Shown here: positions 1,576 to 24,357 of the stretch, piece by piece
How positions within the stretch are numbered: the first letter of the stretch is position 1
How the letters are laid out: each line of letters begins with the position of its first letter
Source of the DNA: Massilicoli timonensis
Lineage (GTDB): Bacteria > Bacillota_I > Bacilli_A > Erysipelotrichales > Erysipelotrichaceae
Length of the DNA: 32,000 nucleotides
Assembly: GCF_900199515.1 (NCBI RefSeq)
Contig: NZ_LT963434.1
Span: forward strand, 2,012,180-2,044,179
Direction of reading: 5' to 3'
Position numbers and translations under genes: made by a program
The notes under the pieces: model-generated
What the model was told of the DNA's origin: nothing
The model's input: the letters and a program-made list of their open reading frames with translations, nothing else
Databases searched by the model: none

Positions 1576-2247
1576 ATGGGTCAATATTATCTTGTTGCAA
1601 ATATTGATAAAAAGGAATATATGATTAGTCCTGATTTTGTGAAACTTATGGAATGGTCATATAACTATAACGATCTGATACTGGAAATGGAAAATCACAT
1701 GGCTATGGACTGGAAGGGTGATCATGTCTATGTGATAGGCGATTATGCAGGCAGCGGTGCAGATTGTAGATATACTGAACTGTTAAAAGAAATAGAAGAT
1801 AAGTTGAACATTGATACAGAAAGAGATTCTATCTTTGACAGAGTTTATAGTGAATTCAAGAAATTGCCAGTTCGCGAAGGTCTGAAAAAATATCGATATA
1901 TTGTGAATCATGCAGCTAAGGAATATATCGATAATGATCATTGCCCTTACAAGGAAAACATGGGGAGCTGGGAAGAAAATGGTAAGATTTTATCCGCAAC
2001 GATAGCACCTCTTTCTTTGATGCTGGCGTTAGGCAATGGACAGGGTGGAGGAGATTATTATGCTCATAATCATGAATTGGTTGGTTCCTGGGCAAAGGAT
2101 AGTTCTTCTCTGGAAATTACAGATGTTAAACCTAAATCGGATTATAAAGAATTGCAGCCTGAATTTCATGAAGGAAAGTATATTCCTTATAAGAAAAGAC
2201 CTGATATAATTTCAAAATTAAAGAACAGAGAAAGCAGACAGCGATGA
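1576..2247 (+). CDS. hypothetical protein (N-terminus MGQYYLVANIDKKEY)
   Basis: AAGGAGG lies 6 nt upstream of ATG 1576. The stop overlaps the next start (ATGA at 2244-2247). Confidence 0.75.
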   Translation: MGQYYLVANIDKKEYMISPDFVKLMEWSYNYNDLILEMENHMAMDWKGDHVYVIGDYAGSGADCRYTELLKEIEDKLNIDTERDSIFDRVYSEFKKLPVREGLKKYRYIVNHAAKEYIDNDHCPYKENMGSWEENGKILSATIAPLSLMLALGNGQGGGDYYAHNHELVGSWAKDSSSLEITDVKPKSDYKELQPEFHEGKYIPYKKRPDIISKLKNRESRQR

Positions 2248-2987
2248 TGGATAATCAGCAAAAAGAATTTCTGTCCATGATAAACAAACACTCCATGAAT
2301 GTCGGGCGAAGAGAGACATGTGAAGGATTTATTGCTTACGCCCTTTCTGTCTTGAATCCAGCATGTTCATTAAAGACTGATAAGGAAAGAGCGAAACAGA
2401 TTGACATGAAGATTAAGAATTCACGTATAAATAATGATGAACTGAAGCATATGCTGAATCTTATGATTGAATCTTTGGAACTGAATAGAAATCAGGACTT
2501 TTTGGCAGAGATATATGCTGATCTAGGAATATTTGATAAAAATTTTGGCCAGTTCATGACTCCATATCATGTAAGTCATATGATGGCAGAAATAAATCTT
2601 AGTGATTTGTCATTAGATAGAAAGATGGAAAATAATCCAATATCCATCTGTGATCCATGCTGTGGAACAGGTGGCATGATGATAGCAGCAGGCAATGTCA
2701 TAAAGGATAAAAACCTGAATATGAAGGATTTCATTTTTTATGCTCAGGATATTGACTGGATGATGGCAATGTCAGCATATGTGCAGATGTCGCTTCATGG
2801 ACAGGTGGGGCAGGTGATTATTGGTAATAGTCTTGACTTAGACAGTCATCCGCGTGAGTTCCTGGATGCCGGAAATTCATGGATTACCTCACCCGCTTAT
2901 ATCTACTATCCGGAATTACTGGAAAGACTATATATCAGAACACAGATGAAAAAGAAAGGCAAAGTTCATGAGGAAAGAGAATTTTAA
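2244..2987 (+). CDS. N6-DNA-methylase-like SAM-binding protein lacking the catalytic NPPF/Y motif
   Basis: Has 'FGQFMTPYHVSHMMAEI' (HsdM-type TP motif), 'DPCCGTGGMMIAAG' (motif I) and 'YAQDID..MSLHG..IIGNSL'. The ORF ends about 55 aa later with no NPPF/NPPY/DPPY. Confidence 0.6.
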   Translation: MMDNQQKEFLSMINKHSMNVGRRETCEGFIAYALSVLNPACSLKTDKERAKQIDMKIKNSRINNDELKHMLNLMIESLELNRNQDFLAEIYADLGIFDKNFGQFMTPYHVSHMMAEINLSDLSLDRKMENNPISICDPCCGTGGMMIAAGNVIKDKNLNMKDFIFYAQDIDWMMAMSAYVQMSLHGQVGQVIIGNSLDLDSHPREFLDAGNSWITSPAYIYYPELLERLYIRTQMKKKGKVHEEREF

Positions 2988-2992
2988 TAACA

Positions 2993-3388
2993 ATGATGGA
3001 TTATAGCAGATGGCTGAATCATGAGTTTTCGAGTGGTTCTGAAACAGGCAATGACTATCTTCAGTTTCAAAGGCAGATGAGGAATGATCTGAAAAGAATG
3101 TGCAGAGAGAACAATATGGAACTGTACAGCTTCAATAAAAATCATTATGAATTCTCGGCTGTATTAAATTCAGACAATGAGTATATTTACATTTCAATAT
3201 CAGATGTTCGCTTCTTTAGAAATGAATGGTATGATCATGTTCTTATAAGAACCATGAAACATTCTATGGACTGGCATGGTGGACAAAACCATTATGTAAA
3301 ATGGGAAGATATAGCGAAAACAGCCAGAAAAATGATAGATAGAAAAAGAAGATTGAAATCAATAAGCAATGGGGAAAGAATTATATAA
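2993..3388 (+). CDS. hypothetical protein
   Basis: 131-aa ORF in the same-strand operon; no recognised motif. Confidence 0.6.
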   Translation: MMDYSRWLNHEFSSGSETGNDYLQFQRQMRNDLKRMCRENNMELYSFNKNHYEFSAVLNSDNEYIYISISDVRFFRNEWYDHVLIRTMKHSMDWHGGQNHYVKWEDIAKTARKMIDRKRRLKSISNGERII

Positions 3389-3790: not shown

Positions 3791-4744
3791 GTGATGGTAC
3801 AGAAAGAACAAGGAATTCAGCTGAGTCTATATGATTATTTCGCTGATTCAGAGGATTTTACACTGAAGGAAGCTGAGGATGCAGTTCTAAACCTCATGAA
3901 AAAGGAAGTAAAGCTACCAAGCATTAGAGCACGCATTTATGAGGGTATTGATAAAGGACTCTTTCAGCGTCTTTCAAAAGGTGTATATAGTGTTACAAGG
4001 GATCAGTCAACATGTCTTCTGATTGAAGGCAATGGACGTGATTTATCCTATATTGCCAATAACTCAATAGACTTCATCATTACAGATCACCCTTATGATC
4101 TTAAAAGCAATAAAGGCGGAAATAGAAATTTTGCTGAATATAAATGCTTTAGATATGATGTCAAAGATTTTCAGGAAAAGAAGAGAGTTCTTAAACCGGG
4201 ATGCTTTCTGGTAGAGTTCCTGCCGGATAAAAATGAGGAAAACAGAGTGTATCTGAATCAGATTGAAGAAATGGCAATATCAGCAGGATTCCGATTTTAT
4301 GCACAGGTGCCGTGGATAAAGGGGGCAGGAAGGAATACAGGAAGAAAGGTTAAGGATAGAGAGAACATTGTATTCTTCAGCAAAGGAAAGGCAAGAGAGC
4401 TTAGACGAGATGCCAAGAAGGAAAAATCAGATCCATCTAAAGAATATAGAATGAGTGGTGCAAAGAGAATGCTGCCATCCTCTTTTGAATATCCTGCACC
4501 TAATAAAAAGGAGCGCATTCATCAGGCTGAGAAACCACTTGATCTGTTAAAAGAAATCATTGACCTGATATCTGTTGAACATGAATTAGGTCTTGATCAG
4601 TTTGCAGGCTCAGGAGTTGCCGGTGAAGCCGCACTGGAATCTAATCGAGATATGATTCTCATTGAGGAAGATAAGGATACATTCAATAAAATGAAGGAAA
4701 GGATTAGCAGAAAGGAGAAAGTGCAGGATGAAAAGATACTTTAA
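3791..4744 (+). CDS. DNA methyltransferase, N4/N6 beta-class (orphan; no cognate endonuclease seen)
   Basis: 'FIITDHPY' (DPPY-type motif IV variant) lies upstream of 'HQAEKPLDLLKEII..LDQFAGSGVAGEAA' (motif I, FxGSG). The true start may be ATG 3794. Confidence 0.8.
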   Translation: MMVQKEQGIQLSLYDYFADSEDFTLKEAEDAVLNLMKKEVKLPSIRARIYEGIDKGLFQRLSKGVYSVTRDQSTCLLIEGNGRDLSYIANNSIDFIITDHPYDLKSNKGGNRNFAEYKCFRYDVKDFQEKKRVLKPGCFLVEFLPDKNEENRVYLNQIEEMAISAGFRFYAQVPWIKGAGRNTGRKVKDRENIVFFSKGKARELRRDAKKEKSDPSKEYRMSGAKRMLPSSFEYPAPNKKERIHQAEKPLDLLKEIIDLISVEHELGLDQFAGSGVAGEAALESNRDMILIEEDKDTFNKMKERISRKEKVQDEKIL

Positions 4745-5162
4745 TGGTTCCATAATGACATATGCAGGAGAAAGGGAGTCATCAGAAATAGACTGGCAAA
4801 AACAGATGTTATATTCTTATATGAGGCCTGGAAAAGTATTTTGCAAAAAGAGCCGAATTATACAAAGGAAACCAAATCATAAGGTATTTGATGACCTTGA
4901 TAAGAATAATCTAAAAAAGCTGTTCAATTTAGTTCATCCTGGAGATATTGTCAGGCTGACGGACTCAGCAGATAGAAATATGCAAAGATATATAAATGAT
5001 CTGTTCTATGTTGAAAGAATATCTTTTGATGGCAAGATTTTCGGTAAGTTTCAAAACGCTGATGTATATATGGAACTTCTACCACAGATGGATGTTTTCA
5101 TCAATGGAAACAGGAAAATCAACATGATCAGCTATCATAAGGAAAGAGGCAGAGATAGATAA
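4728..5162 (+). CDS. hypothetical protein
   Basis: AAGGAG lies about 9 nt upstream of ATG 4728. The ORF overlaps the MTase 3' end by 17 nt. Confidence 0.6.
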   Translation: MKRYFNGSIMTYAGERESSEIDWQKQMLYSYMRPGKVFCKKSRIIQRKPNHKVFDDLDKNNLKKLFNLVHPGDIVRLTDSADRNMQRYINDLFYVERISFDGKIFGKFQNADVYMELLPQMDVFINGNRKINMISYHKERGRDR

Positions 5163-5172
5163 AAAACAGATA

Positions 5173-5201
5173 CTGACATTTATGAAAATGCACGACATAA
5201 T
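5173..5201 (+). promoter_or_regulatory. putative promoter of integrase 1 (CTGACA-N17-CATAAT)
   Basis: -35 CTGACA at 5173-5178, 17-nt spacer, -10 CATAAT at 5196-5201. The 12-mer GCACGACATAAT is repeated upstream of integrase 2. Confidence 0.5.
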
Positions 5202-5213
5202 GTTTATGAGGAG

Positions 5214-6395
5214 ATGTATGCCGTGAGAAGAGAAAAAGGAAAAGGTACAGTTTCCAAAATGTCAGGAAACAGGAATATGCCTTATATGGTAAGAGTCAGG
5301 GATGGCACAAGGAAGAATGAAAAAACTGGAAAGAAGGAAGCATGCTATAAGATCATCGGATATACGAAAACAAAAAAGGAAGGCATCATCATGCTGAATA
5401 AATACATCACGGAAGGCAAATTTTATTCAGGTATGACTTTTGAAATGGTTTACCAGGAATTCAAGAAATTTAAGTTTCCGACTATATCAGAATCATTTCA
5501 AAATGCTCACGAAAATGCATATAAAATATGCCAGCCACTTCATCATCGGATTTTTTCAAATATTGATCTGGAGATGCTGCAAGAACTGATTGATCACAGC
5601 GGCAAGAATTATCCAACTTTAAGAAAGGTCAAGTTACTGCTGACACAGATGTATGATTATGCCATCAAGAATGATCTTTGTCTAAAGAACTATGCAAAGG
5701 GAATCAGCATACGACAGTACGCGGCAAAGAGGATTCCAAGCTATAAAAGAGAAAAGATCAGCAAGAAAGATATCAAGATATTCTGGATGAAAAGCTCACT
5801 TCCTTATTATCAGATGATTCTTTTCATGATTTATACAGGTGTAAGAGTGAGTGAGATGCTGAATATAAAAAAAGAAAATGTTAATCTGGATGAACAGTAT
5901 ATTGATATTGTTGAGGGAAAGAATGATAATAGCATTCGCAGAATTCCTGTTGCGGATGTTATATTTCCTTTTGTATATGAATGGTACTATCGTTATGAGA
6001 TGTCTGAATACCTATTCAGTACGGAAAGTGGAAAGAAGTTCCAATACAGAAACTATTACGACAGTTACTTTAAGCCTTTGGTAGAAGATCTGGAACAGAT
6101 TTATACACCGCACTGGTGCAGACATACATTTGTTTCTCTTATGAGTGAAGCAGAAGTAGATCCTGTCATGATCAAGAAAATAGTAGGTCATAGCACAAAC
6201 ATGGCTGTTACAGAACGCATCTATACACATTATGAAGTAGAAGCAATGCTAAGAGAAGTCAATAAGCTGGAAGAATGGAGTGAACTTGAATCAGAAGAAA
6301 GACAAGGCAAAGGAAGAAATTCCACAATTTACGGGAAGGAATGTTCCTATCAGCGAAATAGCAAAAGCAATGCACAAAGACCCGAAATTCATTAG
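5214..6395 (+). CDS. tyrosine recombinase / phage-type integrase (copy 1)
   Basis: 'YTGVRVSEML', 'HWCRHTFVSLM' and 'VGHS..MAVTERIYTHY' supply the R..HxxR..Y catalytic signature. GAGGAG abuts ATG 5214, so GTG 5223 may be the real start. A roughly 41-aa C-terminal tail past '..EVNKL' overlaps the next gene. Confidence 0.85.
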   Translation: MYAVRREKGKGTVSKMSGNRNMPYMVRVRDGTRKNEKTGKKEACYKIIGYTKTKKEGIIMLNKYITEGKFYSGMTFEMVYQEFKKFKFPTISESFQNAHENAYKICQPLHHRIFSNIDLEMLQELIDHSGKNYPTLRKVKLLLTQMYDYAIKNDLCLKNYAKGISIRQYAAKRIPSYKREKISKKDIKIFWMKSSLPYYQMILFMIYTGVRVSEMLNIKKENVNLDEQYIDIVEGKNDNSIRRIPVADVIFPFVYEWYYRYEMSEYLFSTESGKKFQYRNYYDSYFKPLVEDLEQIYTPHWCRHTFVSLMSEAEVDPVMIKKIVGHSTNMAVTERIYTHYEVEAMLREVNKLEEWSELESEERQGKGRNSTIYGKECSYQRNSKSNAQRPEIH

Positions 6396-13885: not shown

Positions 13886-15352
13886 ATGGCGAATCAAGTA
13901 TTTTCTTCTTATAATCCTTTTTTAACATTGGAATATATGCAAACGGAACATGAAAATAAATATTTTGATAGAAAATCGGCAAAAATTAAACCATCTGATT
14001 TATCACCTTTAGTATCAGCATTTGCTAATGCAGAAGGTGGTACTATTGTCATTGGAATAAGTGATAAGACATTAGAAATTGAAGGCATCCATCAATATGG
14101 TATGGATAAAGCTAATGAATTTATTGCTATTCCTAAAAATGGATGTAAACCCATGCCACAATATAATGAAGAGTTTTTAGATGTTATAAACAGTAAGGGA
14201 GAAAAAGATCAATTGTTGTTATTGCATATTCAACCATCTGTTGATCAAATTGTGAGAACAACAAATGATTCTACTTATTTAAGAATTGGTGATAAAACTA
14301 AAGAATTAAAAGGAGATGACCTTAGAAATTTAGAGTATTCAAAAAGCACTAGACATTTCGAAGATGAAATAAATAAAGATGCCTTACTTGAAGATTTAGA
14401 TGAAGAATTAATTAACGATTATAAAGAAAAATTAGATGCAACTCATTTACCAACTGAACAAGTTTTAAAAGCTAGAGCCTTTATTAAAAATAAAGATGGA
14501 AATAATTATTTGACAAATGCTGCAGTTCTTTTGTTTGCAAAAAATGTTTCTCAATTTTATCCAAATTGTAGGGTTAGATTTATTCGCTATGATGGAAATT
14601 CTGCTCAAGTTGGGACACGAATGAATATTATTAAAGACAAAACTATTGAATGTAATATTCTTAAATTAATTGACGAGGCAAGAATGTTTATTTCATCTCA
14701 ACTAAGAGAATTTACGGCATTAGATCCATTAACTGGCAAATTTAAAACAGTTCCAGAATATCCAGAATTTTCTTGGTTAGAAGGTTTAGTAAATGCAATA
14801 ACACATCGTGAATATGGAATGAGTGGAAATTATATATTGGTAACTATGTTCGATGATCGTTTAGAAATTAAAAGTCCTGGAAAATTACCTAATATAGTAA
14901 CAGTTGAAAATATCAAGGATACTCGTTATGCAAGAAATCCAAGAATTTCAAGAGTATTAACGGATTTTGGCTGGGTAAGAGAATTGAACGAAGGAGTAAA
15001 ACGTATTTATTCTGATATGGCAGATTTCTTTTTAGATGAACCAGAGTATAGTGAACCTGAATCTGCTGTTAAATTGATATTGAAAAATAATATTATAATG
15101 CGCAACATTCGACAAGAAAACCGATTGGAACGCATTTTAACACCAGAAGTGTGGCAACAACTAGATGAATTAGAAAAGTTAATTTTAACTTATTTAGGAA
15201 GCAAAAAGACAGTGACAAGATCAGAGTTGTGTACATACACTAATAAAGCACCTAATACTATATCTGCTAGATTAAATCATCTCATTTCATTAAATATTAT
15301 TAAGCGCAATGGAAGCAAATATGATCCTAAACAGACATATGAAATGAGATAG
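13886..15352 (+). CDS. AlbA_2 (Schlafen-like) + HATPase_c_4 + C-terminal winged-helix protein ('RecG-like' putative regulator)
   Basis: 'FDRKSAKIKPSDL..SAFANAEGGTIVIGISD' (AlbA_2), 'AITHREYG..LEIKSPGKLP..RNPRISRVL' (HATPase_c_4) and a C-terminal 'TRSELCTYTNKAPNTISARLNHLISLNIIKR'. AGGAGGG RBS. Confidence 0.85.
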   Translation: MANQVFSSYNPFLTLEYMQTEHENKYFDRKSAKIKPSDLSPLVSAFANAEGGTIVIGISDKTLEIEGIHQYGMDKANEFIAIPKNGCKPMPQYNEEFLDVINSKGEKDQLLLLHIQPSVDQIVRTTNDSTYLRIGDKTKELKGDDLRNLEYSKSTRHFEDEINKDALLEDLDEELINDYKEKLDATHLPTEQVLKARAFIKNKDGNNYLTNAAVLLFAKNVSQFYPNCRVRFIRYDGNSAQVGTRMNIIKDKTIECNILKLIDEARMFISSQLREFTALDPLTGKFKTVPEYPEFSWLEGLVNAITHREYGMSGNYILVTMFDDRLEIKSPGKLPNIVTVENIKDTRYARNPRISRVLTDFGWVRELNEGVKRIYSDMADFFLDEPEYSEPESAVKLILKNNIIMRNIRQENRLERILTPEVWQQLDELEKLILTYLGSKKTVTRSELCTYTNKAPNTISARLNHLISLNIIKRNGSKYDPKQTYEMR

Positions 15353-15366
15353 TTAAAGGAAAAAAT

Positions 15367-15397
15367 GCGAGGTAAATGCGAGGTATTGCGAGGTTAA
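15367..15397. repeat. 31-bp tri-repeat, copy 1 (GCGAGGTAAAT GCGAGGTATT GCGAGGTTAA)
   Basis: Three 10-11-bp GCGAGGT units. Identical to 15476-15506. Confidence 0.9.
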
Positions 15398-15475
15398 GTG
15401 ATATTTTTGTGACTATTGATATATGATAATAAAAAAATAGCTCATTTTTAATGATTGAAGCAGGATATATTTTTT

Positions 15476-15506
15476 GCGAGGTAAATGCGAGGTATTGCGA
15501 GGTTAA
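15476..15506. repeat. 31-bp tri-repeat, copy 2
   Basis: Perfect direct repeat of 15367-15397, starting 109 bp downstream of it. Confidence 0.9.
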
Positions 15507-15582
15507 ATTATGCATGATAATATAACAGTTGTTATAAAATTATCTCAGATGCTTTAGCAATGCAACAAGTAAGCAAAGGCTT

Positions 15583-15780
15583 CAAAATCCTTATTTTATA
15601 AGGTTTTGCAGTTCTCAAAACGTTAATTTATTCGTTTATTCAGAGAAATGCAAAGAAACTCAAATCAAAAAAGTCTTTATTTATCGACTTTTACACGATT
15701 TGAGTTTTTTTCTGTTTTATTAAAATAAAAACGGTATGCAACATATTTAGACTCAGTGAGTGTTTAGATACTTCTTTTTT
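15583..15780 (+). repeat. promoter-region module, copy B (block X 15583-15648, about 95 bp insert, block Y 15746-15780)
   Basis: Same blocks as 13677-13787. TATAAT at 15796-15801 and 15802-15807, upstream of the FRG gene. Confidence 0.7.
15656..15711 (+). terminator. two-tier hairpin + T-run terminator
   Basis: AAACTCAAATC..(AAAAGTC..GACTTTT)..GATTTGAGTTT followed by a T-run. Confidence 0.6.
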
Positions 15781-15835
15781 GTTTGAAATCAATGATATAA
15801 TTATAATATGAAAATAAAATTAATGAGGTGATTTA

Positions 15836-16692
15836 ATGAATATAAAGACAGTACAAGATTTACTTAATATTTTATCAGATATAAAGCAAAATTATGGAGA
15901 AAAAAGTGAGTATGGAGGAGTCACTCCAAGTGTTAATGGATCACTCCATCCAGATGCTGATTTTGTTTTTCGCGGATTAAGTAATAAAGATTTTAAATTG
16001 ATTCCCAAAATTTTTAGAAATGGGTATAATTTATTATCATATGATGAACCATTAGAAAGATTCAAAAAAGAAGCAAATAGTTATCTATATTCAAAGTGCG
16101 GAGATGATAAATTATTATGGATGCAATATGCACAACATTTTGGTGTTCCAACTCGTCTACTTGATTTTTCTTCTAACCCATTAGTAGCTTTATATTTTGC
16201 ATGTAATGGAGATGAAAGTGTTGACGGTTCTCTCTGGATTATAAATGAATTTAGATTTAATTGCCATACTTCTTTTGAATATTGTAAGGCAGAAGGAAAG
16301 GGGAGGGATCGAGAAATAGACATACTTCATGACTATTTAGAACAAAGTTCAGAGGATGAGTATAATAAAAATAAGAAAGGTGAACTTCCAATAATTTTTT
16401 TCCAAATTATATAGATGATAGAATGAATGCACAATCTAGTAGAATGATGTTATGGCCAATGCATTATAAAGCACTTAACGACTTCATGGATAATGATAGT
16501 TATATGAATCCATCTACAAAAGAAGAGGAATATTCTAATAAGAGGTATGCATTTGAAATAATTATTCCAAAGGAAGAAAAAGATAATATTTTATCTCAAC
16601 TTGATCTTCTAGGAGTAAATGAAAAATCAATATTTCCTGGTTTAGATTCTATTGGAAGGTATACAGATTTTATTTTCAGAAATCAGAAGTAA
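15836..16692 (+). pseudogene. FRG-domain protein, broken by a frameshift in a T7 run
   Basis: 'FVFRGLSNKDFKLIPKIFR' is the FRG motif. ORF 15836-16414 and ORF 16423-16692 join as ..PIIFFPNYIDDRMNAQSSRMMLWP.. if the T-run 16395-16401 had 8 T. Confidence 0.7.
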
Positions 16693-16768
16693 GAAATTAC
16701 GATTTAGTGGTTTATATGAAAATAGAAAATAATGATAGTTGGTTAAATTTTATGAAAGGAAGTATATA

Positions 16769-17072
16769 ATGAAAAATATTAATTATATTATTAGTGATAT
16801 TCATATGTTCATGCACAAATGGTAAAAATGAGCATTTAAATAATACAGAAGATAAAAAAGAAGAAGTATCTTATGAAGAAAAGATATTAGGAACTTGGAT
16901 TTTCTATTGTAAGGATCCAGGTTTAAATTATGGAAATATATTTTCTAAAGATGGTGCAGTAAATTACTTTAATAAAAAAGGGGAAGACTTGTTTGGAAAA
17001 TATACAATTGATGAAAATATGATTGTTATTGATGATGTAGTAATTAATTTATTGGAAATAATCTTGAAATGA
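16769..17072 (+). pseudogene. putative lipoprotein whose start is out of frame at an A5 run
   Basis: AAAGGAAG lies 7 nt before ATG 16769. With one A fewer in 16772-16776 it reads MKILIILLVIFICSCTNGK.. (signal peptide + lipobox Cys). As sequenced, only GTG 16794 opens the frame. Confidence 0.45.
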
Positions 17073-17473
17073 CATATAACGGGTCTACAGTAGCATTAGT
17101 ACGGGGCCAAAAGAATGAAATAATTAGGAATAATAGTAACAATGAAAGTGAACAATTTCAATCAACAAAAGGATTTAATATTGAAAATGAAAAAGTAGTT
17201 ACTGATAAAAATATACTCGCAAGATGTTGGACTGTAGCAATCAAAGAAGTTAAAAGTAATTTAAAGTCACCATCTTCTGCTAAATTTCCATTTTCAGCTA
17301 TAAGCAATGGAGTCGAGATTTTACAAGATCGTAACTATTATTGTGTTCATGGTTGGGTAGAAACTGATAATTCTTTTGGTGCAAAAATTAAAAGCGAATT
17401 TATTGTGTTGATTGACTTAGTACAGATAGAGAGGGATTTATGGAAAAAGAAGGTAAAGTATTTGAACAAGTAA
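17069..17473 (+). CDS. hypothetical secreted/lipoprotein-type domain protein
   Basis: ATGA overlap with the previous ORF. '..LKSPSSAKFP..VHGWVETDNSFGAKIKSEFIV' resembles a common small lipoprotein domain. Its frame is open back to 17048, so it may be the 3' part of the previous gene. Confidence 0.5.
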   Translation: MTYNGSTVALVRGQKNEIIRNNSNNESEQFQSTKGFNIENEKVVTDKNILARCWTVAIKEVKSNLKSPSSAKFPFSAISNGVEILQDRNYYCVHGWVETDNSFGAKIKSEFIVLIDLVQIERDLWKKKVKYLNK

Positions 17474-18165
17474 ATGTTAATAATTGGTGGTATATAAGTA
17501 TACTTATTATCTGTATAGCATCTATGATTTATGGCATCCAAAATGGAAATAAGATATTAGAAAATTTAGGATATGGTGGAATTGCTTCCACTGTAGTAGC
17601 TTGGTGGTTAGATTTCGTTAGTGTAAAACAGAAAAATAAGGAACTAAAAATTGCTCGGTGTTTTTTGTATAATGAATTAGTTAGTTTGATAACATTTGAT
17701 TTTATTGGTATTGCACAATTTTGTAAGATTTATTTTCTAGAAAGTATAGATCTATCAAGTGACTCACATACTTTCAAAGAATGGCTAAATATATTAGATT
17801 CAGAATTTCATAAACTAGAGAATAAAAATAGTTATTTGAGTGATTTTCAAAGTAGAACTAAAAGTAAAGCAGAAATAGTGCTTAAATATTTGAATAAAAT
17901 TGAGGATGACAGATTTTATTTATATAGAGAACAAATGCTAAACGCTGACCTATGGAGTAAATTGAGAGATATTCAATTTACATATTATGTATTAGCTACT
18001 CGAAACATTGATGATAATTATATTGAATATGTTATAACAGCTTACAAAGATCTATGCAGATATCTCGAAGAAATAGGATTTTTAAAATGGATAACTAAAA
18101 AACGTTTCCAAGCAACGTATAATGAATGTCTTAAAGTTGGTGAAGATTTTAGTAGATGTTTTTAA
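17440..18165 (+). CDS. membrane protein (2 N-terminal TM helices + soluble C-terminal domain), function unknown
   Basis: 'WWYISILIICIASMIYGI' and 'GGIASTVVAWWLDFV' are hydrophobic segments. GAGAGGGA lies upstream of ATG 17440. Confidence 0.6.
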   Translation: MEKEGKVFEQVNVNNWWYISILIICIASMIYGIQNGNKILENLGYGGIASTVVAWWLDFVSVKQKNKELKIARCFLYNELVSLITFDFIGIAQFCKIYFLESIDLSSDSHTFKEWLNILDSEFHKLENKNSYLSDFQSRTKSKAEIVLKYLNKIEDDRFYLYREQMLNADLWSKLRDIQFTYYVLATRNIDDNYIEYVITAYKDLCRYLEEIGFLKWITKKRFQATYNECLKVGEDFSRCF

Positions 18166-18225
18166 AGGTTTTGTAAGAGATTTTGAGATTTATAATCTAA
18201 AGTGGAATTAAAGAAGGAGTATTTT

Positions 18226-18582
18226 ATGAGTTTTATTATTGGTATTTGTTATGACGATCAAGCTATTTTAGCAACAGACAGAAGAGTAACAGAAAGATCA
18301 GAAATTATTGATGAGAATTACAAGAAATTAGGTGTTATCAATTTAATAAGTGGATTAACATATGTGGGATATGGTGGAAATAAAGATTTAGCAAATAGTA
18401 TAATGCGTTTACTAAAGAATGTTAATCCATTTCACTTAGGGGCAATTGAAAATTGTATTAAACAAGTTAAACCTTTATTAGATAAAATATTATCAAGCCA
18501 AAATATAAAAGGAATATCGAATAAATTTATTTATAAAAATAATTTACTTATATGTTTATTAAGTTATCAATTTCGTTTATAA
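18226..18582 (+). CDS. short Ntn-hydrolase / proteasome-beta(HslV)-like protein
   Basis: AAGGAGT lies 6 nt before ATG 18226. 'MSFIIGICYDDQAILATDRRVT..KKLGVIN..GYGGNKDLANSI' parallels 'TTIvgikyddgvvlAaDrRaT..Ki..i..aGaaaD'. At about 118 aa it is too short for a full fold. Confidence 0.4.
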   Translation: MSFIIGICYDDQAILATDRRVTERSEIIDENYKKLGVINLISGLTYVGYGGNKDLANSIMRLLKNVNPFHLGAIENCIKQVKPLLDKILSSQNIKGISNKFIYKNNLLICLLSYQFRL

Positions 18583-18623
18583 TAGTGAATATGAAAGGAC
18601 ATATATACGAAGAGGTGAAAGAT

Positions 18624-18848
18624 ATGTACTTTGCAGAATATATGAAAAAGTTGCGCAAAGATAAGTTATTAACACAATCTGAGATGGCTGATATATTAGG
18701 AATTAGTTCTCAAGCTATCAAGATGATTGAGAATGGATCAATAAAATTTCCTAGTAAAGCGGTGCTAGACAAATTATCAGACTATCTAGATAAGTTTCTA
18801 GTTGCTGTTGCTTCGGCTATTATCTTTGGGGAAGATGATCATAAATAA
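18624..18848 (+). CDS. XRE-family HTH protein
   Basis: GAGGTGA lies upstream of ATG 18624. 'LRKDKLLTQSEMADILGISSQAIKMIENG'. Confidence 0.75.
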   Translation: MYFAEYMKKLRKDKLLTQSEMADILGISSQAIKMIENGSIKFPSKAVLDKLSDYLDKFLVAVASAIIFGEDDHK

Positions 18849-18863
18849 GATGAACAAGGATAT

Positions 18864-19301
18864 TTGTCATGTCGCTACTTATCATATAAATATATTAATG
18901 GGTGGAATTTAGATGAGGTTCCAATTGAATTGCAGTATAGAACTGAATCAGTTTTATTTTCTGGAAAGATATCTAAGAGAAGAGAGCCAAAGAACACATC
19001 AATCATTATTGAATTCAGTGAATTTGTAGGATCAGATGCTGTTGATTTATCGGTTGAGGGTGCATATGATATATTGGCTACTATTATGACTATCGTTGCT
19101 CAAAATGAAGAGTCATTTAGAAGAGTAGAGGTATTATTTGATATTAATGATTATCATGATATTAATCCTTTTGATATGTTAGAAAACTTAAAGATATATA
19201 GATTACCAACAGATTTGGTTATAGTTTTATTTGACCCAAATACAGGAGCACTTTGCGATGAAGTAGATATGGGAAAAGGAATAAATATCTATAGAAAATA
19301 A
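18864..19301 (+). CDS. hypothetical protein, in the same frame as the preceding HTH ORF (separated by one TAA)
   Basis: 145-aa ORF with only a TTG start and no convincing RBS. 18846 (TAA) and 18864 are in frame. Confidence 0.45.
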   Translation: MSCRYLSYKYINGWNLDEVPIELQYRTESVLFSGKISKRREPKNTSIIIEFSEFVGSDAVDLSVEGAYDILATIMTIVAQNEESFRRVEVLFDINDYHDINPFDMLENLKIYRLPTDLVIVLFDPNTGALCDEVDMGKGINIYRK

Positions 19302-19361
19302 TCTTTATACAAGTACTAAATGAAGGGTAGAAGATAGTATGGTAAAAAGGAGGAGTTGTTA

Positions 19362-19811
19362 TTGAAAGCAACTGATGAAAAAATAGAAATCATTTTGTCT
19401 CAGTGGCAAACTTGTGTTGAAATGGCAAATTCTGTTAGTCAACGTAGAGATACAATGAACAATATTTTTATAACATTGAATTTAGCTATTGTTACAGCCA
19501 TTTCAATAAGCTGGGATATTAAGTCGTTATTTATTCTTATTGCTGGAATAGTTATTAGCGTTATTTGGTTATTGTTTATTAGAAACTATAAGATGCTTAA
19601 TACAGAAAAATTTAATGTTATCAATGATATTGAAAAGAAATTACCGGTTAAACCTTTCAATGACGAGTGGAACAAGTTAAAAGACAATAAGAAATATAAG
19701 GATAGCACTAAATTGGAGAAAACACTTCCTGTAATGTTTACTGTATTATATATTATTGCTATTGGTACTATTTTAATTATCAAATTTTTCACACAAGGAG
19801 GAACAGTATGA
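19362..19811 (+). CDS. small 3-TM membrane protein (SLATT-like effector candidate)
   Basis: AAGGAGGAG at 19347-19355, TTG 19362. Hydrophobic segments IFITLNLAIVTAISISW, LFILIAGIVISVIWLLFI and LPVMFTVLYIIAIGTILII. Confidence 0.65.
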   Translation: MKATDEKIEIILSQWQTCVEMANSVSQRRDTMNNIFITLNLAIVTAISISWDIKSLFILIAGIVISVIWLLFIRNYKMLNTEKFNVINDIEKKLPVKPFNDEWNKLKDNKKYKDSTKLEKTLPVMFTVLYIIAIGTILIIKFFTQGGTV

Positions 19812-20203
19812 CATATAATATTTTTATCAGCCATTCATGGACTTATGGAGATGCCTATGATAAGTTAACTAATATGCTTAGAGCTAAACCTTATTTTGAT
19901 TATCGTGATTATTCTGTACCTAAGAATGATCCAATTCACAACGCTCCTTATGCATACCAATTAAAAGAAGCTATTAGAAAACAAATGCAACCTGCTAGTT
20001 GCGTTTTAATCATGGCAGGAGTTTATTCAACTTATAGTAAATGGATAAATATTGAAATAGAACTAGCAAGAAGCATGAATAAAAAAATAATAGCAATTGA
20101 ACCATGGGGGTCTGAAAGAATATCAACTGTTGTAAAAAATGAAGCAGATAGAATTGTGAAATGGAACACAGATTCAATAGTAAATGCAATTAGAGGATAT
20201 TAA
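19808..20203 (+). CDS. TIR-like domain protein (DUF1863 / ThsB-type, about 131 aa)
   Basis: 'YNIFISHSW', 'ASCVLIMAGVYSTYSKWINIEIELA' (Glu at the TIR catalytic position) and 'KIIAIEPWG'. ATGA overlap with the upstream gene. Confidence 0.7.
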   Translation: MTYNIFISHSWTYGDAYDKLTNMLRAKPYFDYRDYSVPKNDPIHNAPYAYQLKEAIRKQMQPASCVLIMAGVYSTYSKWINIEIELARSMNKKIIAIEPWGSERISTVVKNEADRIVKWNTDSIVNAIRGY

Positions 20204-20332
20204 TTGAATATAAAAAAACGACTAAACAGAAGGATTTTACTCATGTACGGTCGTTATTCCAAACGATTTGAATTGTTTTGGCAATGCAAAAGTAAGCAAC
20301 GTGTAACAATATGAGAGAGAAGGAGGGATACT

Positions 20333-21100
20333 GTGGGGAGAAAAGGAAGATATTATGGAAGAGGTAAAAATAGATATTATAGAAATTCATATGGGGTTAA
20401 ATATGGTGAAAAAAATTATGGATTGGCAGAAATAGGAATAGGATATTTCATTCTAATAACTATGGTAGTAGCGATACCTATTGCGCTTGCTTATTACTTA
20501 TTAAAAACAATATTATTATTATTTATACCGATACTTTTTATAGGACTAATCTTATTTATAAGAAAGTTTGATATAAGGACTATATCAACTGTTAGCATTT
20601 CTTCTAACTTTCATAAATTTTTTTTAATTATAGATATTATGTTACATAAATATGCTCCATCAATTGTGCTTACGATATTATCTATCTTGTATATTATTTA
20701 CGGTTACAAGAAATTAATTGCTAATTTATTAATTTACTATTCAGAAATGAAATCTGTTTATGTGATGAAATTAATAATGTTATTTGATTATTCGTCTGTT
20801 GATTTCGAATTAATAAAAATATTTTTATTTCATATAATTTATATTTTGATATTTCTATTTTTAACTTTTCTTTTTTTGATATCTGTTTTGATTATAGGTC
20901 GACAAACTTTTAGGTTTTTTTCAATCGAAAATAACTTATTATGCTATATCACAAAGCCTGTATGTACGCGTATCATCAAAATTATTAATCTAATTGTATT
21001 TATCATATTGATATTAAATTATCCTATAGGGATTTTAACAGGTAGATATATTTTTTTTGATGATTTAGTGGGCAATCTTATAAATTATATATTATGGTAG
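20333..21100 (+). CDS. polytopic membrane protein with an Arg/Gly/Tyr-rich N-terminus
   Basis: GAAGGAGGG RBS and GTG 20333. 'GRKGRYYGRGKNRYYRNSYG' followed by at least 6 hydrophobic segments. Confidence 0.6.
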   Translation: MGRKGRYYGRGKNRYYRNSYGVKYGEKNYGLAEIGIGYFILITMVVAIPIALAYYLLKTILLLFIPILFIGLILFIRKFDIRTISTVSISSNFHKFFLIIDIMLHKYAPSIVLTILSILYIIYGYKKLIANLLIYYSEMKSVYVMKLIMLFDYSSVDFELIKIFLFHIIYILIFLFLTFLFLISVLIIGRQTFRFFSIENNLLCYITKPVCTRIIKIINLIVFIILILNYPIGILTGRYIFFDDLVGNLINYILW

Positions 21101-21109
21101 GGAGAACGT

Positions 21110-22120
21110 ATGGAAAAATTAGAACTTTCGAAAAATGGTTATATTTGTTTAGATGATAACGATATAATTGATATTATGTATGAGAAAAAATATCAGATAC
21201 CAGTCTCTGAAATTAGAAATATTGAAATAATTAATGGTTTACTCACTAATAAAATCATGATTATAGAAACAAATAGTCAAAAATTAAAAATTAATTTGTT
21301 AATGTATAATTTAGCTGAAATCATTACATTAGTTAATTTTATTAGAAGTAAATTAAGTCAACCTGAGATAAAAATTAGCACCGAAAAAAATGGAATAACA
21401 GATCGAATGAATTTAATTATATATAGTAAAAATTTAAAAATAAATAAAATGATTAGTTATATAATATCGATATCAGTGCTTATTATCCTTGTATTTGGTG
21501 GTTTCTTTGTAAGGATAATAAAGGAAAAAAATGATATAAAACTATACTCAGATAATTCAATAGAAAATAAAGTGGAATCTTTATTTAAAAATTATGTTGG
21601 AAAAGAAGGAATGGTTGAACTACAAGAAAATAACATTTCTGATGATATAGGGATAATTTCCATAACTTCTTCATATTCTTCCGAAGATTATCCAAATATC
21701 TACGAATTTATTAAAGAAACAGATAAGTTAAATACGAATTACATTGGTTTTATTTATAAGTTAAATGACCAATATATAGATATCAAAGGATACGATCTTG
21801 AAATTAATGATAAGATTGTATGGAATGATAGCAATGAATCACAAAAAATAGTAGAATATAATTCAAATAATACATACGGTGAGATTATTGAAATAAAAAA
21901 TAAGTATGGAAGTCCATTAGGGTATAAAATAAAGGAATATTATACAGGAAATGAAATAATTGTTGAAGATAAAACAATAGAACAAGGATTAGATTATGAA
22001 TATAAATTTAAAATCGGCGATTTTGTTGAAGTTTATGGATACGTAAATAATAACTACTATATACCTGATGCATATATTACATCATTTCCAAAAGAATTTT
22101 TGGAAAATGAAAAAGAATAG
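21110..22120 (+). CDS. PH-like N-terminal domain + single-TM + C-terminal domain protein
   Basis: GGGAGAA RBS. 'IPVSEIRNIEIINGLLTNKIMIIETNSQKLKINL' is bacterial-PH-like. TM segment 'MISYIISISVLIILVFGGFFV'. Confidence 0.55.
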   Translation: MEKLELSKNGYICLDDNDIIDIMYEKKYQIPVSEIRNIEIINGLLTNKIMIIETNSQKLKINLLMYNLAEIITLVNFIRSKLSQPEIKISTEKNGITDRMNLIIYSKNLKINKMISYIISISVLIILVFGGFFVRIIKEKNDIKLYSDNSIENKVESLFKNYVGKEGMVELQENNISDDIGIISITSSYSSEDYPNIYEFIKETDKLNTNYIGFIYKLNDQYIDIKGYDLEINDKIVWNDSNESQKIVEYNSNNTYGEIIEIKNKYGSPLGYKIKEYYTGNEIIVEDKTIEQGLDYEYKFKIGDFVEVYGYVNNNYYIPDAYITSFPKEFLENEKE

Positions 22121-22133
22121 TTGCATGAGAATT

Positions 22134-22170
22134 AAAAGAAACCATTGATAGGTTTTGATGTTTCTTTTTT
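22134..22170 (+). terminator. rho-independent terminator
   Basis: AAAAGAAAC..17 nt..GTTTCTTTT plus T-run. Confidence 0.55.
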
Positions 22171-22707
22171 ATGTTTACAATAATTATAAAAGCAGATTTT
22201 GAAACATTGGGAAAAATTTCAGAAAAATTAGATGAACTAAAATCGTTTCAACACAAAGAGTTTATGATTAACAAATTATATTTACAAAGATTTACAAGAA
22301 ATGAATTTGTGGAAAGTTTAGGAGTTCCAGTTTGCCCATACTGTAATAGAAATTTTGTGAATTCTGCTAAAAAAAGAACAATGTGCGATTTAGATCATTT
22401 TTATAATAAAGACGAATATCCTTTATTGGCAGTTTCTTTTTACAATCTTGTTCCAGTTTGCCATTCATGTAATCATGCTAAAGGAACAAAAAATATTGAT
22501 TACTCTCCACATGATAAAAAGTATAAAACAAATGATTTAGTAAATTTTGATTTTTATTTAAGAAGCATGAATTTTTTATATAATTCTAAAGATATAGGAG
22601 TAGAAATTGAAGAATCTAAACAATTTGTAAGAAATATAAAAGTACTTAAATTATCTGAAGTATATCAAATACATTCTGATATAGTTCAGGATTGTATAAA
22701 AAGGTAA
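22171..22707 (+). pseudogene. HNH-type nuclease (PtuB/retron-HNH-like Cys/His motif) remnant, 3'-truncated at the IS end
   Basis: 'CPYCNRNF..DLDHFYNKDEYPLLAVSFYNLVPVCHSCNHAKG'. There is no RBS (ATG abuts the terminator T-run). Stop TAA 22705-22707 lies in the first bases of the IS. Confidence 0.55.
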
Positions 22708-24357
22708 TGTAAACTGGAGCGTGGTTTTGGGAAATGACGCTATAAACTAGTGCGTTGGTAATAAGAAGAAAAGCAAATGAAAAATAAGATAAAAAATCTT
22801 ATAAAAACATTTGCTTTTTATATGTCGAGAATATAGGTAAGATGATTATAATAAATGATTTTTCTTAGAATTTTTATCAGACTTTAAGTGATCATTGATA
22901 GAATAAAAAACTTTTTTATTAAGAGCTAAAAGACATCTTTTTCTAAATCTAGTGAAATTAGTAACACCATTAGAAACCGCCAGATAAGTACGTATCTGAC
23001 CATTGATGTTTTCAGAAAGAGAGTTACTAAGCTTTCTATTATCAAAAGGCTTTTTGAATGAATTGAGTATTTCAATTTTCCAATTGTTAAGGAGAATAAT
23101 AAACTCATGATATTCAGGAATCTGTGCCTCTATAAAAGCCTCATAAATAGAATTAAACCATTGTTCACAATTTTCTTCAGTTGCTTTCTGATTAAAGAGT
23201 AAATACATCTCTTTCAAACGATATGCAAGAGCTAAGTTTTCACTAATATCCAATATCATATCAAGCAGATCTCTTTTGTTCAACTTTCTATTAAATCGTT
23301 TATTGTAGAGAGGTTTATTATCTAAATAAACATCTTTCTCAATCAAATCTTTCCAAGTTTTTAAGAGATAATAACTATTACTATTGTATTCCACTTGATA
23401 AAGGATATTAAGACGAATGCGAGTGAAACAATCCATGAGGTGTTTTACAACATGGAAAGGATCAACAGCGATAATAGCGTTCCTTAAATAAGTAGCAGCG
23501 ATATCTTTATAAGGCAACCACATATCAATCGTTACGTATTTCACGTTATTTCTCTCTGCAAGAGGTATTTTATCGAAATAGCGTTTTAATTCAGCCTTAG
23601 AACGAGAAGGAAGAATTTCAAATAAGGATCTATTTACATTATCTACCATAATGCATAAATAAGCAGAATCTCTACGATTTGCCATCTTAGAATGGATTTC
23701 ATCGATACCAATTGATTCAGGAAGATGAATTCTAGGGATATTGACAAAGCTGTCAAAGTAACGCTGTACTTGCGTAATGGAGATGTGATTGAGTTGAGCT
23801 ACCATAGAATAAGTATAGTTGAGATTGGAAAGAGATTTCATAATGTTATTCAAAGCGAGGTAAGAGTTTTTGAAGGTAGAGAAAGTAAAAGGATTCTTAC
23901 CAGAGAAAGTACGAAGACATTCGTTGCATTGATAACGATTATTTTTGAAAACGATGACACACTTACGATCAGTAAGTTTAGGGTGATTGATATATTTAGG
24001 ACGATGATAACCATTGGAGTGGGAAATACCACTACAGTAAGAACAAGGTGGATTAGTGGGTTTAAGAGTAATAAAAAGTTGGGTTAGATCAGGAGAAGAT
24101 TTGATATCAAAAAATTGAATCAAATTTTTGTCGATATTGAATAGATCTGTGATAAAATCATACATAGGTTGATACCTCCTTCGTGTTAAAGTTTCTCGGC
24201 AAAGAAAAAGTAACATGAAGGTTATTTTTTTTCATAGTAAAAGTGGACACCCACGCAAGGTGTTAAAGGGTATCCACGCATGAAGTTAAATAGGTTTGAA
24301 AATAGCCACGCAAAGAGTTAAAGGTCCTCCACATCCACGCACCAATTTAAAGCGCCC
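22703..24357 (-). mobile_element. ISL3-family insertion sequence (ends approximate)
   Basis: Imperfect terminal IRs: left ..GTAAACTGGAGCGTGG, right (reverse complement) ..TTAAATTGGTGCGTGG. Subterminal CCACGCA-N5-6-TTAAA repeats at 24251, 24274, 24306 and 24335. Single transposase gene. Confidence 0.7.
22846..24165 (-). CDS. ISL3-family transposase
   Basis: AGGAGGTA RBS before ATG 24165. N-terminal Zn-finger pattern 'CSYCSG..H..' and 'YQCNEC', then a DDE region ('GIDEI', 'VTIDMW', 'VDPFHVVKH'). Confidence 0.8.
   Translation of the reverse strand: MYDFITDLFNIDKNLIQFFDIKSSPDLTQLFITLKPTNPPCSYCSGISHSNGYHRPKYINHPKLTDRKCVIVFKNNRYQCNECLRTFSGKNPFTFSTFKNSYLALNNIMKSLSNLNYTYSMVAQLNHISITQVQRYFDSFVNIPRIHLPESIGIDEIHSKMANRRDSAYLCIMVDNVNRSLFEILPSRSKAELKRYFDKIPLAERNNVKYVTIDMWLPYKDIAATYLRNAIIAVDPFHVVKHLMDCFTRIRLNILYQVEYNSNSYYLLKTWKDLIEKDVYLDNKPLYNKRFNRKLNKRDLLDMILDISENLALAYRLKEMYLLFNQKATEENCEQWFNSIYEAFIEAQIPEYHEFIILLNNWKIEILNSFKKPFDNRKLSNSLSENINGQIRTYLAVSNGVTNFTRFRKRCLLALNKKVFYSINDHLKSDKNSKKNHLL

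Follow-up and report, generated by a model that had tools for sequence, protein, structure and literature searches.

We analyzed a pair of overlapping genes from Massilicoli timonensis. The genes lie in a 32,000-nucleotide stretch of contig NZ_LT963434.1, and this whole stretch is what we call the window. The first gene encodes a small membrane protein from the 8xMP family, and the second encodes a small TIR-domain protein of the ThsB type; together, they comprise just 280 amino acids (Table 1). ThsB is known from Thoeris, which was redefined in 2025 as a TIR protein together with any signal-activated effector (Yirmiya et al., bioRxiv 10.64898/2025.12.03.692087, from the Sorek laboratory). Both open reading frames (ORFs) are on the + strand, as same-strand neighbors, and the overlap of start and stop codons is predicted to couple the two genes. 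An earlier note, made from the DNA sequence of the window, had proposed that this pair is a minimal immunity module.

Table 1. Features of the gene pair, in coordinates of the window.
Feature	Position	Strand	Basis and remarks
Shine-Dalgarno sequence of the membrane-protein gene, AAGGAGGAG	19347..19355	+	read directly; GGAGG ends 8 nt before TTG 19362
Gene for a 149-amino-acid PF24838 protein with three transmembrane helices, predicted effector	19362..19811	+	PF24838 match; alternative mechanical start at TTG 19356
Shine-Dalgarno sequence of the TIR gene, AAGGAGGAA	19795..19803	+	read directly; within the 3' end of the upstream gene; GGAGG is 6 nt before ATG 19808
ATGA start/stop overlap	19808..19811	+	ATG 19808-19810 overlaps stop TGA 19809-19811
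Gene for a 131-amino-acid ThsB-type TIR protein, predicted sensor and signal synthase	19808..20203	+	PF08937 match
Codon for Glu83, predicted catalytic glutamate of the TIR	20054..20056	+	alignment

The mechanical ORF of the membrane-protein gene opens at TTG 19356, which follows the ribosome binding site immediately, without spacing. The true start is likely to be TTG 19362. We prefer this codon because it gives a protein of 149 amino acids, which is the length of a 99%-identical protein in NCBI (P0001, from M. timonensis, Erysipelotrichaceae), and because it leaves 8 nt between the GGAGG and the start. Homologues that begin with MK likewise have 149 amino acids. The earlier note had described a strong ribosome binding site before a protein of about 150 amino acids, and this was correct, except that the length shrinks from 151 to 149 amino acids. 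Reading the sequence directly also confirmed the ATGA overlap that it described, as well as the motifs NIFISHSW and SKWINIEIE in the second ORF, which has a strong Shine-Dalgarno sequence of its own.

The second protein, which begins with MTYNIFISHSW, is clearly a ThsB-type TIR. It matches Pfam’s ThsB_TIR family (PF08937) with 64.3 bits (the cut-off is 21.2 bits; E = 1.4e-17), and it matches the ThsB model in PADLOC (PDLC00418, E = 5e-17). Its sequence also resembles MTH538. The AlphaFold2 (AF2) model has a TIR/flavodoxin-like fold, with an average predicted local distance difference test (pLDDT) score of 84.5. Comparing this model to solved structures with Foldseek identified EcThsB (8wcf), EcThsB2 (8v6t), a TIR from Bacillus cereus (8fz9, TM-score 0.75), and MTH538 (1eiw). 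Other proteins with the TIR/nucleoside-deoxyribosyltransferase fold match the model as well; DNPH1 and the CMP N-glycosidase MilB are among the top matches. The protein is a single TIR domain: a profile scan found no separate sensor module within its 131 amino acids.

The earlier note had placed a glutamate of SKWINIEIE at the catalytic position of the TIR, and the alignments agree. Glu83 (the first E of NIEIE) aligns with the glutamate of RYEI in ThsB from B. cereus and with the equivalent glutamate of all of the Thoeris TIRs in Table S1 of Yirmiya et al. (10.64898/2025.12.03.692087). It is invariant among 36 homologues, as is the whole TIR core. In PsTIR, which is from a type IV Thoeris system, the predicted catalytic glutamate (E79) is required for defense.

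The first protein matches Pfam’s “Octameric membrane protein family (8xMP),” PF24838, with 118 bits (the cut-off is 30 bits; E = 3.4e-34). The match spans positions 2-135 of the 136 positions in the profile, so this is a full-length member of the family. NCBI’s name for the near-identical P0001 is “RipA family octameric membrane protein.” PF24838 is a large family, with 2,450 or more clusters at 50% identity, from both bacteria and archaea. Some of its members have weak matches to holin families. We considered a phage origin for PF24838 and rejected it: the family has no matches in sequenced phages, and matches in only 3 contigs from IMG/VR. The earlier note had brought up SLATT-like proteins as recurrent effectors in such systems, but the membrane protein is not SLATT-like by our tests: a scan with Pfam profiles found no match to a SLATT family, even at E up to 10. 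Matches to CD20 and to DUF2270 (PF10028) are both sub-threshold; the match to DUF2270 has 14.6 bits (the cut-off is 25 bits; E is about 0.026-0.027) and includes just the N-terminal helix and the first two transmembrane (TM) helices. No model in NCBIfam matches either protein of the pair, and no model in PADLOC matches the membrane protein.

The Kyte-Doolittle profile of the membrane protein has hydrophobic segments at about residues 34-51, 56-74, and 121-143. These are preceded by a soluble N-terminal helix (residues 1-33), as the earlier note had described. The loop between TM2 and TM3 has 46 residues, of which 12 are lysine or arginine. The predicted topology is N-in/C-out, with both the N-terminal segment and the TM2-TM3 loop in the cytoplasm, because of the positive-inside rule. 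In the AF2 model of the monomer (pLDDT of 78.5), helices are at residues 2-49, 54-92, 101-113, and 117-145, which corresponds to a long helical hairpin and a third TM helix. The residues that are conserved when family members are aligned at 29% identity are R29, N33, K83, E91, E102, and E119, and all of them lie within the two segments that are predicted to be cytoplasmic.

Scanning one genome per species, we found relatives of the membrane protein, with 44-83% identity, at 45 loci. In 38 of these loci, an HMM scan found a TIR directly downstream and on the same strand. Another two loci are at contig ends, one has a masked stretch, and three are degenerate copies (a truncated membrane gene in L042, a 32-residue remnant in L052, and a disrupted reading frame for the TIR in L031). 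Just one locus is a true orphan: L033 has an intact 8xMP gene (3992-4429) without a TIR, beside a 303-amino-acid ORF whose C-terminus is Mrr-like by eye. The hosts are from the Bacillota (Clostridia and Erysipelotrichales), the Spirochaetota (Spirochaetales), Campylobacter, Succinivibrio, the Neisseriaceae, Elusimicrobia, and Lentisphaerae. Because both proteins match curated Pfam families far above threshold, and because the genes are adjacent in dozens of unrelated genomes, the pairing is more than chance.

More distant homologues (29-43% identical) were found in plasmids by using tblastn, and we inspected nine of their genomic contexts. The 8xMP gene is adjacent to a TIR-domain gene in 8 of the 9 contexts. 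In 6 of the 9, the neighbor is a ThsB_TIR (in Clostridium perfringens, Haematospirillum, Paenarthrobacter, Novosphingobium, Synechococcus, and the archaeon Halorubrum), usually in the reverse order, with the TIR first and then 8xMP. The remaining contexts are a 449-amino-acid protein with a weak match to TIR_2, a TIR-NB-ARC-WD40 STAND protein, and an orphan. The STAND protein is from plasmid pRL22b6 of Rhizobium leguminosarum (NZ_CP050092.1; L068, 2131-6238). It has 1215 amino acids, with a TIR_2 domain at residues 17-125 (E = 2e-14), and its gene ends 2 nt before the PF24838 gene. In Rhizobium, an NLR-like TIR sensor is apparently coupled to the same family of membrane effectors. Megaera carries an orphan 8xMP gene.

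Some loci have more than one TIR. In 4 of the 45 genome loci, a second, different TIR lies between 8xMP and the ThsB-type TIR. In these loci (L047 at 3932-5315, L049 at 1874-3240, L050, and L051), the second TIR has 159 amino acids, matches TIR_2 and ThsB, and contains the motif SWWVPFEIG; the three genes are beside an Eco47II-type restriction endonuclease. This may be a multi-sensor version of the system, similar to Thoeris systems with several ThsB genes. In plasmids from C. perfringens (such as NZ_CP065633.1; L056, 1495-3808), we found a caspase-family protein, a TIR, 8xMP, and a ThsB-type TIR in a row, with the cpb2 toxin gene a few kb away. Here, a pair that resembles type IV Thoeris abuts an 8xMP-TIR pair, which may be a combined or synergistic arrangement.

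We also considered fusion proteins. A metagenomic protein of 220 amino acids (P0138) joins the first 92 positions of the 8xMP profile in frame to a ThsB_TIR from which the first 10 positions are missing, and it is probably a deletion derivative. We rejected Rosetta-stone fusions as evidence for the pairing: P0138 is truncated, and the long representatives of the family do not contain a TIR.

While the pairing is conserved, the flanking genes change. Among the 112 large ORFs that flank the genome loci, the Pfam tally is led by ResIII, N6_N4_Mtase, SWI2_SNF2, and domains from type I restriction-modification (RM) systems, along with BrxL, GmrSD, AAA_5, and integrases. In other words, the pair is found beside type I or type III RM systems, BREX (BrxL), GmrSD, McrB-like genes, and integrase genes; this placement in defense islands is a qualitative result. 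For instance, a 78%-identical copy of the pair lies in another island, with a type I RM system on one side and GmrSD/WYL genes on the other. The plasmid copies are often beside toxin-antitoxin (TA) genes, recombinases, and transposases. The pair’s own surroundings in the window, a stretch at 14-23 kb, have a GC content of 23-30%, versus 31-44% in the flanks, with an ISL3 transposase at the boundary. Eleven further ORFs surround the pair in the window, and not one of them was found beside it elsewhere. As possible further components, we considered the upstream helix-turn-helix (HTH) gene, the upstream 145-amino-acid ORF, and the multi-TM ORFs that lie downstream, and rejected them because they are not conserved with the pair. 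Given the conserved pairing, the changing flanks, the low-GC stretch, and the lack of other conserved neighbors, comparative genomics indicates that the pair is a self-contained, horizontally mobile, two-gene module of defense islands.

The earlier note had stated that its idea would fail if no TIR/flavodoxin-like fold was predicted for the second protein, or if the two genes did not co-occur in other genomes. The fold is predicted, with matches to solved structures of ThsB and a PF08937 score above the cut-off, and the genes co-occur across phyla.

What might the pair do? The closest relative of the window’s TIR that has been characterized experimentally is EcTIR from E. coli 328, which is 56% identical. 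EcTIR is part of a type IV Thoeris system (Rousset et al.), and it is the protein from which the signal N7-cADPR (a form of cyclic ADP-ribose, or cADPR) was purified. TIRs that are beside 8xMP in other genomes are up to 67% identical to EcTIR. A validated TIR from type VII Thoeris (from Pseudohongiella) is 40% identical to the window’s TIR, and TIRs from type VIII, in which the effector is a CMP hydrolase, are 35% identical. When expressed without their effectors, the type VII and type VIII TIRs make canonical cADPR, and they do so strictly upon infection (10.64898/2025.12.03.692087). Because the partners of this clade of TIRs swap among caspase, SLATT, CMP-hydrolase, and 8xMP proteins, and because characterized relatives make signals, we view the clade as a signal generator that exchanges effectors, with 8xMP as a predicted effector. 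The earlier note had offered two mechanisms: a TIR signal generator with a membrane effector, or a membrane sensor that gates a TIR NADase. The first is clearly favored, because the closest characterized TIRs are signal producers, and the second is disfavored.

Ideas for how the membrane protein might act come from two other proteins. ThsF, the validated effector of type V Thoeris, has three TM helices and was modeled as a ring with positive pockets between the protomers, where the ligand is expected to bind on the cytoplasmic side; it is predicted to kill by acting on the membrane (10.64898/2025.12.03.692087). RipA from Francisella tularensis is reported to be a small, homo-oligomeric protein of the cytoplasmic (inner) membrane with two essential cytoplasmic domains. 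These domains correspond to the layout of the N-terminal helix and the TM2-TM3 loop in the window’s protein, although the two proteins are likened by family name and description, not by sequence. RipA is a conserved virulence and envelope factor that is linked genetically to LpxA/GlmU and also to intracellular growth. It has no reported TIR partner or role with phages. (The Rosmer toxin RipA from Streptococcus pneumoniae, PMC12795458, is an unrelated namesake; that work has no membrane, TIR, or octamer content.) Searching the literature for “8xMP,” for an octameric membrane protein, or for cryo-electron microscopy of RipA found nothing relevant. Because of the ring model for ThsF, the oligomerization of RipA, and the conserved residues in the cytoplasmic segments, a signal-gated, membrane-disrupting oligomer would be the most economical model.

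Overall, we think it likely that the pair is a self-contained, two-gene abortive-infection module of the Thoeris type, in which a signal from the TIR triggers membrane damage by an 8xMP oligomer. The 131-amino-acid TIR would be the phage sensor. Upon infection, it would use NAD+ and its catalytic Glu83 to make a second messenger that is derived from ADP-ribose; the likeliest messenger would be an isomer of cADPR that is cyclized on the adenine (N7-cADPR or canonical N1-cADPR). The 149-amino-acid protein would form a homo-oligomeric ring in the membrane, with the N-terminal helix and the K/R-rich loop between TM2 and TM3 facing the cytoplasm. Binding of the signal to the conserved cytoplasmic segments would switch the ring to a membrane-disrupting state, such as a pore, and the cell would be halted or killed before the phage completes its cycle.

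Taking this a step further, PF24838 proteins might be membrane rings of a new, ligand-gated class, which would directly bind the N7- or N1-cADPR made by the partner TIR. We offer this more specific idea tentatively, and it could well be wrong. If true, then 8xMP would be a widespread receptor for TIR signals, paired with bare ThsB TIRs, double TIRs, or TIR-NB-ARC-WD40 sensors, and the virulence factor RipA from Francisella would be a domesticated member of a family of nucleotide-gated effectors.

Several points weigh against the Thoeris-type reading of the pair. Profile scans for SLOG, Macro, SAVED, and CARF found none of these in the membrane protein, which has no recognizable nucleotide-binding domain. 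Neither sequence searches of PDB nor Foldseek found a solved relative of the membrane protein, and the octameric state of PF24838 proteins is a prediction from the name of the family. We considered homology of 8xMP to ThsF but could not demonstrate it: the DUF2270 match is sub-threshold, and hhalign, run against the three-TM neighbors of type V-like TIRs, gave a probability of 2%. A distant homology to DUF2270 may still exist. The scans for promoters and terminators around the pair gave no hits above shuffled controls, so expression of the pair is a prediction. In the literature that we searched, we did not find any experiments on an 8xMP-TIR pair. Yirmiya et al. caution that the TIRs of unverified Thoeris types might instead act as effectors that deplete NAD+ (10.64898/2025.12.03.692087). 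Finally, their Table S1 includes TIRs whose neighbor is labeled “3TM.” One of these TIRs is 80% identical to the TIR from Halorubrum that abuts a PF24838 gene. We infer that the “3TM” effectors are PF24838 proteins, but this equivalence is indirect.

Reversed roles would fit the caution of Yirmiya et al. In that case, the membrane protein would sense a perturbation of the membrane or the envelope by the phage (such as DNA injection, holin insertion, or superinfection), and it would activate a bound TIR as an NAD+-depleting executioner, with no diffusible signal. Translational coupling by the ATGA overlap suits a stoichiometric complex, a bare 131-amino-acid TIR has no separate module with which to sense the phage, and TIR NADases are known effectors in CBASS, Pycsar, and prokaryotic Argonaute (pAgo) systems (10.64898/2025.12.03.692087). 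But equally bare TIRs, which are 35-56% identical to the window’s TIR, sense phage by themselves and make signals. Also, the swapping of partners by this clade of TIRs is how a signal generator would behave, and the pairing of 8xMP with unrelated classes of TIRs and with TIR-NB-ARC-WD40 is how an effector would behave. We consider reversed roles to be unlikely.

The pair could also be an addiction module, in which a holin-like membrane toxin is restrained by the TIR-fold protein, so as to stabilize a mobile island, with no NAD+-based sensing of phage. This would explain why the pair is frequent on plasmids near TA genes, recombinases, and transposases; the weak holin-family matches of some family members and the membrane gene without a TIR in L033 might point the same way. 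However, with a constitutively toxic membrane protein, the orphan genes in L033 and in Megaera should kill their hosts. Furthermore, an antitoxin that merely binds the toxin would not be expected to have an invariant catalytic glutamate and TIR core, and most of the genomic flanks are defense genes rather than genes for plasmid maintenance. An addiction module therefore seems very improbable to us.

We give slightly less credence still to a housekeeping role in the envelope, with the TIR-fold protein as a metabolic N-glycosidase of nucleosides or nucleotides: although the namesake RipA is tied to LpxA/GlmU and intracellular growth rather than to phage, and DNPH1 and MilB are among the top structural matches, sequence profiles identify the protein as ThsB_TIR and not as Nuc_deoxyrib_tr, the pair is patchily distributed, in a low-GC island by a transposase here and with RM or BREX flanks elsewhere, and it is found in Gram-positive hosts that do not have the lipid A pathway.

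Other genes near the pair are also of interest. The stretch at 14000-23000 looks like a defense or variable island. This low-GC island includes (at 13886-16414) a Schlafen protein with AlbA_2 and HATPase_c_4 domains and an FRG-domain protein. At 18202-18582 (+) is a 126-amino-acid ORF whose N-terminus resembles the proteasome beta subunit (Pfam Proteasome, E = 1e-4; TIGR03634, E = 1e-6, which is far below the cut-off). Directly upstream of the pair are an HTH_3 regulator (18552-18848, +) and the 145-amino-acid ORF (18864-19301, +), which does not belong to any family. Also in the island, and without a family, are several small ORFs as well as two multi-TM ORFs with a very high AT content (20333-21100 and 21110-22120). 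At 22171-22707 (+) is an HNH nuclease of 178 amino acids, which matches positions 94-267 of the 328 positions in the PADLOC candidate PDC-M62B (E = 1e-36) and also matches HNH models of the PtuB or retron type. We did not find its partner PDC-M62A, and the ISL3 transposase (22846-24216, -) adjoins it. The HNH gene is probably the remnant of another defense system that was truncated by the insertion.

Yirmiya et al. (10.64898/2025.12.03.692087) described 29 putative configurations of Thoeris and validated seven new types (V to XI). In their Table S1, at least 100 TIRs have a “3TM” neighbor; this class has no type number and is outside of the 10 configurations that were tested. Most of the “3TM” examples that we examined are in a cluster of TIRs that also holds the tested TIRs of types VII and VIII. 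The earlier note’s statement that the pair is not a canonical Thoeris is correct for types I and II, but under the expanded definition it is not, as the pair corresponds to the putative “3TM” type. Because this configuration was already cataloged computationally, the pair appears to be a previously predicted, unvalidated variant of Thoeris, and it is not new to specialists. What is new here is the assignment of the effector to a family (PF24838/RipA), the consistent association of this family with TIRs down to 29% identity and in archaea, the association with an NLR-like TIR-STAND protein, and a concrete prediction for the signal. Naming PF24838 would connect “3TM” with a large family, one that extends into archaea, has a TIR-NB-ARC-WD40 partner, and is linked by name to RipA from Francisella.

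The pair is also a clean and minimal example of one of the remaining predicted types. Thoeris is thought to rival CBASS in abundance, yet only 11 types of effectors have been validated. And the source is a member of the Bacillota from the human gut, where few signaling defense systems have been tested.

How does the pair compare to the known types of Thoeris? It has the genomic features of Thoeris in general: a TIR with a conserved adjacent effector in an operon, and localization to defense islands. Its 35-56% identity to TIRs that make N7-cADPR or cADPR predicts a phage-triggered signal that would activate the effector, and protection against phage is expected of such a system. The SIR2-SLOG ThsA of type I and the TM-Macro effector of type II are not part of this locus. 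From 16.8 to 22.7 kb of the window, profile scans of the ORFs turned up neither SIR2 nor SLOG nor Macro domains.

The “3TM” type of Table S1 and Fig. 1C is the most similar. It combines a short ThsB-type TIR with a small three-TM protein, in defense islands, and the window’s pair likewise has a TIR of the cluster 2734565194/2556961318 type beside a three-TM protein. Most of the “3TM” TIRs have 52-65% identity to the window’s TIR, and two others have about 40%; the window’s TIR shares with them the motifs FISHSW, NYSVP, AGVYSTYSKWI.(I/K)EI, and PWG. For this class, the preprint does not name a family, and it reports neither a structure nor a signal nor an experiment.

Type V Thoeris (ThsB and ThsF, with 3'cADPR as the signal) also has a small three-TM effector. 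However, identity between type V TIRs and the window’s TIR is low (21-27%), and ThsF belongs to DUF2270, which the window’s protein matches only below threshold. When we searched plasmids for type V TIRs with tblastn, we found contexts with SIR2 or Macro, or else with three-TM proteins of 135 amino acids that have no Pfam family. These include proteins of 135-136 amino acids beside type V-related TIRs in plasmids of Terribacillus, C. botulinum, and Priestia (L060, 2777-3187; L061, 2838-3245; L069, 2486-2893). They share the layout of 8xMP (an N-terminal amphipathic helix, a TM hairpin, a loop, and a third TM helix), with the hhalign probability of 2% mentioned above. They may be another unnamed family of three-TM effectors, or they may be divergent forms of ThsF.

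Type VII Thoeris (ThsB and the SLATT effector ThsH, with canonical cADPR as the signal) resembles the pair in that TIR signaling is combined with a membrane-spanning, killing effector, and the same is true of type II, although there is no Macro domain in the pair. The validated type VII TIR from Pseudohongiella is in the same cluster as most of the “3TM” TIRs. But ThsH has two TM helices and a SLATT domain, while the window’s protein has three TM helices and no SLATT domain.

Type IV Thoeris, which has the closest characterized TIR, is a two-gene operon, as is the window’s pair. The difference is in the effector: a caspase-like protease in type IV, versus a membrane protein of 149 amino acids here. 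(We did not find a caspase gene in the window.) With a TIR that is this close to producers of N7-cADPR and cADPR, the pair bears on how one signal might be read by unrelated effectors, whether a protease or a membrane ring.

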